Positions 5,508-7,808 of a stretch of 40,027 bases of DNA are shown here, piece after piece. The translations under genes were made by a program, and so were the position numbers. Every line of letters starts with the position of its first letter. Positions within the stretch are counted from its first letter, which is position 1. The stretch spans positions 1-40,027 of the forward strand of contig JACOVJ010000054.1 in assembly GCA_016177385.1 (NCBI GenBank), read 5' to 3'. The stretch comes from Candidatus Niyogibacteria bacterium. Lineage in GTDB: Bacteria; Patescibacteriota; Minisyncoccia; HO2-45-28. The notes under the pieces were generated by a model. The model made no database searches and was not told the origin of the DNA. It saw nothing but the letters and a program-made list of their open reading frames with translations.

Positions 5508-6638
5508 ATGAATAGTAAAAAAGTCAATAATCGCATCATCGCGCACTTAGACCTCGACGCCTTTTTTGCGGCCGTCGAGGAGCGCGACCATCCGTGGCTT
5601 CAGGGTAAGCCGCTCGTGGTGGGCGCGGACCCGAACGGCGGGTGCGGGAGGGGTGTCGTTTCGACGGCGAGTTATGCCGCGCGCGCCTATGGTATCCGTT
5701 CGGCGATGCCGATTTCGAAGGCGTGGCAATTGTCCGAGGCGGCGCGCCGCGCCGGCAAAGAGCCCGCGACCTTTTTACTCGGCAACCACCATCGGTACGC
5801 CGAGGTTTCCGGCGCAGTAATGGAAATTGTTCGACACCGAGTGTCTAACATAGGGGCAACCGAGCAGAGTGGAATTGACGAGATTTACTGCGATTTAAGT
5901 TTTACGGAGTCGTTCGAAAACGCCGAGGTATTTGTTCGTAAAATAAAAAATGAAATACGGGAACGCGAATTTTTGACGATATCGGCGGGCATCGGGCCGA
6001 ATAAATTGATTGCGAAGATCGCATCGGAACGCCAAAAACCGGACGGGTTGACGCTCGTGCGTCCTGAACAAGTTCAGGATTTTTTGGATCCGCTTCCGGC
6101 GCGCGTCATCCCCGGCATCGGGCCGAAAACGGACGGGGCGCTCGCGAAAAATGGCGTCAAAACCATCCGCGATCTGCGCGCATTTAGTCGCGAAAAACTT
6201 ATCGAGCGGTTCGGCAAATGGGGGAGTGATTTATACAAAAAAGCGCGAGGTGAGGACGATTCTCCGGTGGAGGAATCGGATGAAATAAAATCGGTGGGTG
6301 AGCAGGAAACGTTTGAAACCGATACGCTCGAATTAGCGTTCGTTTGCGAACGGTTGAATGCATTATGCTCGGATGTGTTCCGGCGATTCTTGCGCGATGG
6401 ATTTAAAACATTCCGCACTATAGCGCTGACCGTGCGATTCGCGGATTTCCAAACGCAAAGCCGTGCGCATTCATTGAAAACGCCTGCTCGAACCGAATCC
6501 GTTTTACGGTTCGAGGCGCTCAAATCGCTCCTGCCGTTTTTTGATAAACGCGAAAATCCGCAGAGCAAAAAGCTCCGCCTGATCGGCGTGCGGGTGGAGA
6601 AGCTGTCTAAAACTTTTGACGGCCGTTCAAAGTTTTAG
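5508..6638 (+). CDS. dinB: DNA polymerase IV (Y-family)
   Basis: IAHLDLDAFFAAVEERD, SGIDEIYCDL, GIGPNKLIAKIAS, IPGIGPKT; full length, 376 aa. Confidence 0.95.
   Translation: MNSKKVNNRIIAHLDLDAFFAAVEERDHPWLQGKPLVVGADPNGGCGRGVVSTASYAARAYGIRSAMPISKAWQLSEAARRAGKEPATFLLGNHHRYAEVSGAVMEIVRHRVSNIGATEQSGIDEIYCDLSFTESFENAEVFVRKIKNEIREREFLTISAGIGPNKLIAKIASERQKPDGLTLVRPEQVQDFLDPLPARVIPGIGPKTDGALAKNGVKTIRDLRAFSREKLIERFGKWGSDLYKKARGEDDSPVEESDEIKSVGEQETFETDTLELAFVCERLNALCSDVFRRFLRDGFKTFRTIALTVRFADFQTQSRAHSLKTPARTESVLRFEALKSLLPFFDKRENPQSKKLRLIGVRVEKLSKTFDGRSKF
5829..5849. repeat. 21-nt hairpin GTTCGACAC-CGA-GTGTCTAAC inside dinB
   Basis: Near-identical copy at 32532-32552 (GTTAGACAC-CGA-GTGTCGAAC). Confidence 0.7.
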
Positions 6639-6643
6639 ACAGC
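6602..6643. repeat. 42-nt near-perfect palindrome covering the dinB stop codon
   Basis: 15-bp arms GCTGTCTAAAACTTT / AAAGTTTTAGACAGC around the palindromic loop TGACGGCCGTTC. Confidence 0.85.
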
Positions 6644-6688
6644 AAGAAAATCCGCCTCATCGGCGTACGGGTCGAGAAACTTCAATAA
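6641..6688 (+). pseudogene. Displaced second copy of the dinB C-terminal coding segment (SKKIRLIGVRVEKLQ*)
   Basis: 42 nt aligned to 6564-6605 show 8 differences, 7 of them synonymous. Out of frame with dinB, and followed by its own TAA. Confidence 0.7.
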
Positions 6689-6692
6689 AGTA

Positions 6693-6720
6693 TTGATTTT
6701 TTCTTGATTTGTGCTATAGT
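6693..6720 (+). promoter_or_regulatory. Promoter TTGATT-N16-TATAGT with TGn extension
   Basis: TTGATT 6693-6698, TGCTATAGT 6712-6720. Confidence 0.5.
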
Positions 6721-6766
6721 ATTCCGAACGCTCAGTTTGTACATTCACACAAAAAACAGAGGAATT

Positions 6767-7267
6767 ATGAGCGAAGAAACCGTGTCGCGGTTTGCATATT
6801 TTTTTCCTTTTCATGGAATGCCGCAAAAACTCAAAACAGTTTCGACGGGCAGCGGGACGCTATCATTGCGTCTCCCTGATGAGGTTGATCCACGCATCTT
6901 GGCCGTCGATCCGAAAGACCGGCGCGTCCTCATTGTTTTCGACGGCGTGATTCCTTCTGGTGGTCTGCCGCAAGCGTGCTCCATTTTGGATTCCGCTCCG
7001 TGCCGCGTTGTGCGTATTCAGACGGAACATGCGTATAAACAGCGTCATCCTGTTGAAGAGCCGTTGACGTATTCTGTACGGAAAATTAATGGCCGAATGT
7101 ACGCTGAACAGGAAATCGCTCGTCATATTCTGCTTTCGCCGCACAAAGAGTCCTGTCTTCGCCGATATCACAACAAAACCCTTCGCCCGCATTATGTTTG
7201 CTTGGAAATTTTGAATGGCAAAAAGGACGGATTGATCGTGCGACTGAGGCGCGTTTCAACGTATTAG
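6767..7267 (+). CDS. Hypothetical protein (orphan, 166 aa)
   Basis: ATG 6767 preceded by AGAGGAA. Has its own promoter and terminator. No family recognised. Confidence 0.65.
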   Translation: MSEETVSRFAYFFPFHGMPQKLKTVSTGSGTLSLRLPDEVDPRILAVDPKDRRVLIVFDGVIPSGGLPQACSILDSAPCRVVRIQTEHAYKQRHPVEEPLTYSVRKINGRMYAEQEIARHILLSPHKESCLRRYHNKTLRPHYVCLEILNGKKDGLIVRLRRVSTY

Positions 7268-7268
7268 C

Positions 7269-7302
7269 CCCTATCGAGGTTGAACCTCGATAGGGATTTT
7301 TT
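7269..7302 (+). terminator. Intrinsic terminator
   Basis: 11-bp stem CCCTATCGAGG / CCTCGATAGGG, 5-nt loop, then ATTTTTT. Confidence 0.8.
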
Positions 7303-7363
7303 ATTGGTGTTCGGGTGGAACATCTGTCTAAAAGAATGAACGGTTGTACAAAAATTTAGATAG
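7303..7363 (+). repeat. Third diverged copy of the dinB 3' end plus hairpin (IGVRVEHLSKRMNGCTKI*)
   Basis: ATTGGTGTTCGGGTGGAACATCTGTCTAAAAG...TTTAGATAG aligns with 6582-6640. Confidence 0.65.
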
Positions 7364-7390
7364 AAAAAACGCCCGCGAGATGCGGGCGCG
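7364..7390 (-). terminator. Intrinsic terminator for the lipoprotein gene
   Basis: CGCCCGC/GCGGGCG stem; on the - strand it is followed by TTTTTT. Confidence 0.7.
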
Positions 7391-7401
7391 TACTTGGAAA
7401 A

Positions 7402-7692
7402 TCAGCGGGCGCGGATGACGACAAAATATCCGACATTCTCACCATAGGCCCCGGCGCCGTTGCCGGTCATCGCCTCGATCTCGGTTCCCGGATTTTGTTT
7501 TTTGAATTGGCTGAGCGCATTTCCGAATTTGGCTTCGTTGCAGGGGAAATATAGAACGCCGTATTCGTAATTGAGGGGCAAACAGCCCGCCTTTCCGATG
7601 TTTTCGGATTCGCTGGCCCGATTCGGATTGCATGCAGTCAGGAAAAAGAGAGCAATGAACATCAGCGCCGCTGTCATGATAGATCGCAACAT
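7402..7692 (-). CDS. Small lipoprotein, hypothetical
   Basis: Signal peptide ending in the lipobox FLTAC; AAAGGAG RBS. Confidence 0.75.
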   Translation of the reverse strand: MLRSIMTAALMFIALFFLTACNPNRASESENIGKAGCLPLNYEYGVLYFPCNEAKFGNALSQFKKQNPGTEIEAMTGNGAGAYGENVGYFVVIRAR

Positions 7693-7808
7693 GGCATCTC
7701 CTTTGGGGAGTTATGAGCGTGAATATCCACGCTATTCTTAGTTCTTTTTATCTGTTTTGTCAAGGGTTAGTTGTCTTGCGAGAAGATCCTAGGAATAATA
7801 GGCGCATA

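Follow-up and report, generated by a model that had tools for sequence, protein, structure and literature searches.

Three diverged copies of the dinB 3' end around a small gene in a Candidatus Niyogibacteria genome

Why does a small genome carry the end of its DNA polymerase IV gene, dinB, three times in a row, with an unrelated gene between the second and the third copy? The question is raised by a contig of 40,027 nucleotides (JACOVJ010000054.1; contig C65 in our numbering) from a metagenome-assembled genome (MAG) of a Candidatus Niyogibacteria bacterium (GCA_016177385.1), a member of the candidate phyla radiation (CPR); we refer to this whole 40-kb stretch as the window. The MAG comprises 688 kb in 86 contigs, with 54% G+C, and is 92.7% complete. 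We compared it with G001, an independent assembly of the sister species and the sole close genome found; the genus has two known species. We propose that the three dinB ends are the nested footprints of at least two insertions in the last ~14 codons of the gene, which would have occurred by recombination at homeologous anchors and without a dinB-specific integrase, an explanation to which we give slightly better than an even chance.

The three dinB ends and the gene between them

The dinB gene (positions 5508-6638, plus strand) encodes a protein of 376 aa with the Pfam domains IMS, IMS_C and IMS_HHH_1, which is 84–86% identical to the DinB of the sister species. It terminates in ...SKKLRLIGVRVEKLSKTFDGRSKF and a stop codon, the last 12 codons and the stop being supplied by a palindromic element. 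Upstream of this element lies the core of the functional end, copy X (6564-6601, plus strand; SKKLRLIGVRVEK(L)). Copy Y (6641-6688, plus strand) reads SKKIRLIGVRVEKLQ and a stop; it is a displaced but intact-looking dinB end, situated behind the dinB stop codon in a different frame, and the distance from X to Y is only 77 nt. Copy Z (7303-7363, plus strand), also displaced, reads IGVRVEHLSKRMNGCTKI and a stop, and its core (7303-7323) is followed by a degenerate member of the same palindrome family (7324-7363). The right-hand resident flank is marked by the terminator (7369-7389, minus strand) of a convergent 96-aa gene (7402-7692, minus strand), and this terminator is common to both species.

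The direct repeats X, Y and Z have a 20–24-nt core in common, ATYGGNGTNCGGGTNGARMA. Written as a degenerate pattern and counted over the window and over 100 shuffles, this core matched at 6582, 6659 and 7303 only (3 matches against 0.10 expected), and none of the 100 shuffles reached 3. The repeat finder gave identities of 75% over 56 nt for X and Y and of 70% over 74 nt for X and Z, while the local alignment of the sequences upstream and downstream of the X hairpin scored 41, with a shuffle maximum of 19. An earlier interpretation of this DNA from its letters alone (hereafter, the sequence-only reading) had placed three dinB ends at these positions, allowing that their likeness might be no better than chance; the placement holds, and chance does not account for the likeness. 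Also in agreement with that reading, Y is out of frame behind the dinB stop, and the codons of X and Y differ at 8 nt, of which 7 are synonymous and one exchanges Leu and Ile. The cores of X and Z differ by 4 synonymous changes and one Lys/His codon, and this Lys-to-His change in Z hits the conserved EKL motif.

The canonical DinB proteins of related CPR bacteria end in ...KKIRLIGVRVEKL plus 1–10 variable residues. Because of this, Y, which encodes EKLQ and a stop, and the counterpart of Z in the sister species (Z'), which encodes EKLK and a stop, have the form of a canonical DinB C-terminus and resemble gene ends that nothing has interrupted. In X, in Z and in the functional end of the sister species (X'), such an end seems to have been broken by a palindrome just after the Leu codon; the C-terminal tails encoded by the hairpins are not conserved at the protein level. 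Y and Z thus resemble ends that were formerly in use rather than duplicates decaying in place. The sequence-only reading had taken them for former functional ends, and this is supported by the canonical C-termini, by a synonymous bias that proved significant and by the recurrence of the same footprint at other genes.

Between Y and Z lies a gene of 166 aa (6767-7267, plus strand), previously described as an orphan with its own promoter and terminator. Both signals were recovered: a sigma-70-like promoter at 6693-6720 (plus strand; TTGATT, 16 nt, TATAGT, with an upstream TG), which is conserved in the sister species, and a strong intrinsic terminator at 7269-7302 (plus strand), in which the stretch 7269-7295 is followed by a T-run directly abutting Z. 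The orphan status, alone among the factual statements of the sequence-only reading, was not borne out. The protein belongs to an uncharacterised family of ~160-aa CPR proteins, represented in an exhaustive profile-free search by 42 distant homologues of 143–192 aa that share the motifs D.RD.R.LVVFDG.IP.GGLPK and R.F.LLP..VRRY..SL.P.Y; a close homologue was found only in the sister species (87% identity). The comparison of these two close genes gave a ratio of non-synonymous to synonymous divergence (dN/dS) of 0.12, with a dS of 0.56, and the low ratio therefore marks the 166-aa gene as a working gene.

Neither Pfam nor PADLOC gave a match for the 166-aa protein or for any of the 42 homologues, and a defence-gene identity was rejected on the PADLOC result for the cassette genes. 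An IS200/IS605-like unit (hairpin, small transposase, hairpin) was rejected as well: the protein has no Y1 domain (PF01797), and the right hairpin is missing in the sister species. No His-hydrophobic-His motif was seen in the protein. We also discarded a decayed tandem dinB copy, as blastn, blastp and tblastn showed that the cassette is unlike the body of dinB. A search of Rfam over 6300-7800 returned nothing meaningful, and within 6644-7302 there was no antisense match beyond chance to the X, Y or Z junctions.

The AlphaFold2 model built from a 43-sequence alignment is very confident and all-beta (pLDDT 93.9, pTM 0.88); a model built from a two-sequence alignment was unusable (pLDDT 37). Foldseek found no significant neighbour of the all-beta model in PDB or BFVD, and the predicted structure may represent a new fold. 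On other CPR contigs, end sequences place the homologues between rseP-like and proS-like genes, in some cases next to a gene for a PemK toxin; on those examined they never adjoined dinB. A metagenome scan with the same family yielded four loci only, none of them adjoining dinB.

With regard to dinB itself, 2 of 9 genomes of the bacterial family have the gene, both of this genus. Beyond these, the best DinB matches are ~60% identical and come from other CPR groups and Deltaproteobacteria, and dinB itself may have been acquired horizontally. Two metagenome contigs with DinB from closer relatives are 1.2–1.3 kb long and end before the sequence after dinB is visible. The dinB of the sister species carries in addition an in-frame 21-nt insertion with the palindrome TTGGAAAC-TTA-GTTTCCAA (L002:~2280-2300; alignment columns 993-1013), absent in the genome studied here, which is another palindromic element tolerated within a coding region.

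The sister species and other sites with the same footprint

The locus has the same order in the sister species: a dinB ending in ...IGVRVERLSKRMNDRSKF and a stop within a hairpin, a remnant of Y, the same promoter, gene and terminator, Z', and the same downstream terminator. Since the X-Y-gene-Z order is found in both genomes, the triplication predates the split of the two species and is no assembly artefact. The sister Y' is decayed, with deletions, and Z' (ATCGGCGTGCGTGTAGAGAAGCTGAAATGA, encoding IGVRVEKLK and a stop) has no hairpin. The sequence-only reading had looked to relatives for presence or absence of the segment 6641-7363; no such polymorphism was found, the only close genome carrying the cassette as well. 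It had also considered that relatives might keep the triplication as a conserved functional structure. The shared layout agrees with this, but the decay of Y and the absence of the Z hairpin in the sister species do not.

The copies of the two species do not pair by position. The X core agrees with Z' at 22 of 24 positions, against 17 of 24 with its positional counterpart X'; the Z core together with the left hairpin arm agrees with X' at 36 of 41 positions, against 28 of 41 for X; the right hairpin arm of X is identical to that of X' (20/20), against 14 of 20 for Z; and further upstream the first 18 nt of Y are identical to X' (18/18), against 14 of 18 for X. On these matches, the functional dinB end of the sister species combines pieces of X, Y and Z in a three-way mosaic, with one breakpoint at the hairpin centre; the copies have thus continued to exchange sequence. 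More distant DinB loci (e.g. that of genome G059) end in EKLQ... followed by gatB, without repeats, and are not syntenic.

We searched for the same arrangement at other genes by comparing the ends of all long open reading frames (ORFs) with the 3 kb downstream of each, and by a BLAST of the genome against itself. An mfd-like gene (C81:10568-11665) has an end NRIGWNLYFQFVNEAIGEMEGLSDA and a stop, followed by a promoter, a 281-aa gene without Pfam match, a terminator and a second end, NRIGWNLYFQFVNEALDELTFE and a stop; in the shared part of these copies all of the differences (7/7 nt) are synonymous. A holB/dnaX-like gene (C48:6342-7250) has an end RELPVELALHRIVREVSL and a stop, then an opposite-strand 237-aa gene without Pfam match, and then RELPVELALHRIVREIPVA with two stops. 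Both cassettes are absent from the orthologous sites of the sister species.

Further cases were found at other kinds of targets. On contig C51 a gene end (...KKSLLGKR and a stop) recurs 73 nt downstream across hairpins, the copies being 26/27 identical. The 3' parts of tRNA genes are duplicated across 100 nt on C20 and across 37 nt on C59. On C47 a 38-nt terminator is duplicated around an insert of ~300 nt, each copy having a palindrome at its left edge, and the sister species has at this site a single uninterrupted terminator and no insert. Beyond the shared core, the tails differ completely between the gene-end copies.

When the nucleotide differences of dinB X/Y and X/Z and of the mfd-like and holB-like copies were pooled, 22 were synonymous and 4 non-synonymous (P ~2e-5). 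The null model allowed the coding copy synonymous changes only and let the displaced copy drift, which gives an expected synonymous share of ~0.44.

We also made a census of insertions of 30–4000 nt whose flanks are contiguous in the other genome, comparing this genome with the whole genome of the sister species. It identified, with tight empty sites, 47 insertions specific to this genome, ~10 of them with a target duplication of 8–65 nt, and 32 specific to the sister species, 7 of them with a target duplication of 18–69 nt; the remaining insertions had no duplication. Roughly a fifth of the lineage-specific insertions have a diverged target duplication (8–69 nt). The duplicated targets are unrelated sequences; they include the ends of genes and the start of one, parts of tRNAs, terminators and a 5S-like sequence. 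Among the insertions for which the empty site was printed, the copies of protein-gene ends and of the gene start differ from each other, and two 18-nt duplications of tRNA 3' ends in the sister species are identical. On C36, the displaced copy, contiguous with the orthologous flank downstream, is closer to the sister species than the copy in use, as expected of an imported replacement end.

Several other observations were made at these and similar sites. The dinB, mfd-like and holB/dnaX-like targets all serve in the replication or repair of DNA. In the sister species, two tRNA 3' ends contain related inserts, one of 158 nt and one of 180 nt (C4:~101873-102067 and C9:~59128-59344 of G001), with identical 18-nt flanking repeats that start in the T-loop. 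Both end in ...GGAGCGAA(A/G)CGACG and contain a stretch complementary to the T-arm and acceptor of the target tRNA (about 20/23 in one of them). A 5S-rRNA-like sequence (C83:2799-3117; ..CCATTCCGAACAGAG..) is partially duplicated, over 16 nt and over 44 nt, around inserts of 54–152 nt that are absent in the sister species. Finally, a perfect 97-nt tandem repeat at the end of a 145-aa ORF (C39:12374-12567) may have arisen by very recent duplication or through an error of assembly.

A dispersed family of palindromes

The element that closes dinB (6602-6643; encoding LSKTFDGRSKF and a stop) is a near-perfect 42-nt palindrome and a member of the CTGTCTAAA...TTTAGACAG family. Its 21-nt arms are 90% complementary, and folded as single-stranded DNA it gave -14.3 kcal/mol (z = -5.7). 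The hairpin at Z is real but weak (-4.8 kcal/mol, z = -2.5). Both structures had been pointed out in the sequence-only reading, and its suggestion that the hairpin be sought elsewhere was productive: the CTGTCTAAA-n-GGACGGCCGTCC-n-TTTAGACAG arrangement is represented by six copies in this genome (C65:6603, C65:7324, C47:5549, C47:7217, C25:8590 and C62:4328) and by only two in the sister species. The family members are 38–42 nt long, with conserved tips (CTGTCTAAA/TTTAGACAG) and centre (GGACGGCCGTCC) and covarying inner arms. On the sequence of these copies, the dinB hairpin is one member of a dispersed palindrome family and is not peculiar to dinB. A looser hairpin pattern, run against all genome contigs, returned unrelated palindromes and was uninformative.

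The C62 copy is a clean insertion of ~57 nt relative to the orthologous site in the sister species, without duplication, and the Z hairpin is likewise missing there; the palindrome is therefore a mobile or at least indel-prone element. Both features by which dispersed palindromes are recognised, multiple copies and indel polymorphism between close genomes, were found. The family appears to behave like the Rickettsia palindromic elements (RPE) and the MJRE of Methanocaldococcus jannaschii, being short, dispersed over intergenic spaces and gene ends, and readable in frame. It differs from RPE, MJRE and REP/REPIN in that the CTGTCTAAA elements are only 38–42 nt long and that no link to Y1 (RAYT-like) genes was seen. 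Of the three Y1 matches (PF01797) in the genome, on C13, on C18 and at 25.9 kb of C65, none has a copy of the CTGTCTAAA family on the same contig (C13, C18) or nearby (C65); repeats of the GGGGAGTCC type flank the C13 gene, and just after the C18 match there are palindromes of the TTGGAAGC type.

The wider population comprises ~90 long near-perfect palindromes of 30–52 nt across the genome (e.g. 37662-37707 and 38321-38364 in the window). They form two superfamilies with conserved centres, GCTATAGC or ACGGCCGT, and variable, compensating arms that share an ..ACTAAAC.. motif. They fill intergenic spaces, occur in all orientations of the flanking genes and often lie a few bases from a start or stop codon. 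Flanking direct repeats were significant in 2 of the 37 palindromes tested, the dinB one and one other, and therefore a long duplication is no normal by-product of palindrome insertion, an origin that we rejected for the dinB repeats. We propose that the palindrome is a selfish element in its own right, dispersed through the genome and often located at insertion junctions.

Two further palindrome sites were recorded. A perfect 38-nt palindrome, TTGGAAGCTAAGCTTCCAATTGGAAGCTTAGCTTCCAA, lies at C33:2754-2791, inside the region that matches the only tyrosine recombinase of the genome. At C47:4337-7260, two tandem paralogues of ~375 aa (minus strand) have homologous upstream regions, and each of these regions ends in a palindrome of a different subfamily; the duplicated 38-nt terminator of C47 adjoins them.

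How the ends may have multiplied

The variable lengths of the duplications, the unrelated targets, the allele-like divergence of the copies and their differing tails favour incoming DNA that was joined by means of a short homeologous anchor. An enzyme of fixed stagger, be it a transposase or an integrase, fits poorly, because it would give one length and initially identical copies; in-situ duplication fits poorly as well, because the displaced copy would decay at all codon positions. According to the mechanism that we propose, imported DNA with a homeologous stretch of ~10–70 nt would recombine with a chromosomal gene end. This DNA would come from a related genome carrying its own copy of the target. 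In the simplest form, a circularised fragment would enter by a single crossover (Campbell type), which would give the order end, cargo, end directly. Campbell-type integration of circular DNA by a single crossover requires no element-encoded enzyme. A cassette flanked by repeats could excise through them and repeat the process in a relative.

At dinB, each insertion would have spared the gene by bringing a second, allele-like end. A first event would have placed a single-gene cassette of ~640 nt (Y end, promoter, 166-aa gene and terminator) before the then-resident end, now Z, and in a second event a unit of 77 nt, made up of a new end and a palindromic element of 40 nt, would have come to lie before Y. 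This layout is older than the split of the two known species of the genus, and exchanges between the copies have followed, one breakpoint lying at the hairpin centre; the mosaic of dinB ends between the species would reflect different crossover points or later conversion. Y has decayed in the sister species, and the Z hairpin is present in this lineage only. The same process would be a general route of gene gain in the genus. Allelic replacement of dinB that leaves old ends behind, the second of two origins offered in the sequence-only reading, fits the locus well.

The first of those origins was an element that integrates site-specifically at the dinB 3' end and brings a replacement end. In its most developed form, the locus would be a remnant in the style of cis-mobilizable elements (CIMEs), in which an integrase-bearing element targeting the dinB 3' end accreted in tandem and lost its integrase, X being attL, Y an internal att and Z attR. 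We regard this as unlikely, although it is the best placed of the alternatives. CIMEs and tandem accretion arrays may contain more than two gene-end repeats, and their cargo may lack recombination genes (PMC5704250); in the ssrA islands of Dehalococcoides, a dozen ssrA 3' repeats lie downstream of ssrA (PMC3146451). Integrative elements that enter the 3' end of a tRNA, tmRNA or protein gene and bring a substitute end, together with CIMEs (ICESt1-related at fda) and accretion arrays, are the nearest systems described, and they are like the dinB locus in their repeats, cargo and intact target, and three direct 3'-end repeats around cargo beside an intact gene are the textbook outcome of accretion followed by decay (PMC5704250; PMC3146451).

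As in integrative elements, repeats from the target gene's end flank cargo at dinB, and as in CIMEs, att-like repeats coincide with a lack of integration and transfer genes. The T-loop duplications of 18 nt in the sister species also resemble classic integrase footprints. Against these likenesses, there is no integrase or other recombinase within or near the dinB cassette, the sole gene between the repeats having no Pfam match. The whole genome contains one tyrosine recombinase match (PF00589, on contig C33), no serine recombinase (PF00239) and one sub-threshold IS110-like match (PF01548, at 39.5 kb), and the search for a recombinase linked to a dinB-adjacent island, which the sequence-only reading had recommended, thus ended with a single tyrosine recombinase on another contig. 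Moreover, the cargo is one small gene, or between X and Y only 38 nt, in a unit of 77 nt; the cargo family is unlinked to dinB elsewhere; and, contrary to site-specific recombinase systems, the footprint occurs at many unrelated targets with duplications of widely varying length (8–69 nt). What stands of the site-specific proposal is that a replacement end was supplied and the old one left in place; what is not supported is an element specific for dinB.

An origin in place, by slippage or template switching at the palindrome followed by divergence, appears improbable. Palindromes stall replication forks and stimulate rearrangement, the two hairpins lie exactly at copy boundaries, and the near-identical copies on C51 are what such a process would leave. 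The 22:4 synonymous bias, on the other hand, rejects an untranslated copy that drifted, the tails beyond the common core are wholly different, as in orthologous alleles, most palindrome insertions in the genome have no flanking duplication, and the cassette that separates Y from Z bears no relation to dinB.

We see an equally slim chance that the arrangement is functional, whether as a switch of the DinB C-terminus, through excision of the cassette or through regulation of dinB and the downstream gene by the hairpins. The layout is kept in two species, the copies exchange sequence, and each genome retains at least one intact-looking spare end. Yet Y is decayed in the sister species, Z has lost the Lys of its EKL motif here, the Z hairpin is weak in one species and absent from the other, and the tails encoded by the hairpins are not conserved as protein. 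Lastly, a concatenation of strain variants of one gene end during metagenome assembly, which a MAG of 86 contigs and synonymous-only differences resembling those of strain alleles could suggest, can practically be set aside, as the independent assembly of the other species has the same order but a sequence that differs in its own way, flanks and tails are not the same from copy to copy, and no k-mer path would join the terminator to a second allele.

Recombination of imported DNA at homeologous anchors, which we favour, has weak points of its own. Neither an empty dinB site nor a cassette-free relative was found (with one close genome), and therefore the insertion is read from the anatomy of the locus and from analogy with the other loci. 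Short anchors that are ~10–20% diverged are poor substrates for RecA-type recombination, and the origin of the first circle or fragment carrying a gene end plus its neighbour is unexplained by the proposal. A recombinase acting in trans, perhaps lost or encoded on an unassembled contig, may have been involved, given the 92.7% completeness of the genome. Tests of polarity, which asked which copy resembles the sister species, were mixed, because an orthologous divergence of ~15–20% swamps the few informative sites. Competence and a circular intermediate are inferred parts of the route.

Among known processes, the proposed route is akin to homology-facilitated illegitimate recombination, in which foreign DNA taken up by natural transformation integrates at a short homologous anchor; it needs no enzyme encoded by the element, acts at any target and has heterogeneous outcomes (PMC3240628). 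It differs in that the cases described mostly delete recipient DNA and leave no diverged duplication.

The dinB locus is a nested and old example of a recurrent, apparently undescribed variant of gene-end-restoring insertion in CPR bacteria. We put forward tentatively, as possible rather than probable, a broader picture in which small-genome CPR bacteria routinely gain genes by an enzyme-independent, homology-anchored route, with imported fragments beginning within the end of a conserved gene and the resident end left as a spare, a gene end plus its neighbour being a self-propagating mobile unit whose junctions are marked or promoted by palindromes. For annotation, there is a risk that displaced gene ends, and C-terminal tails that a hairpin encodes, are mistaken for genes or gene extensions. 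CPR genomes are tiny and gene-dense, with few recognisable mobile elements, and their acquisition of genes is poorly understood. The dinB locus and about one in five lineage-specific insertions show a repeatable addition of DNA within gene ends that leaves the essential or repair genes concerned unbroken. If this addition is anchored by homology and not driven by an integrase, it would represent a general and so far undescribed mode of gene gain, and, if true, it would account for many of the duplicated gene ends seen as oddities in other small genomes.

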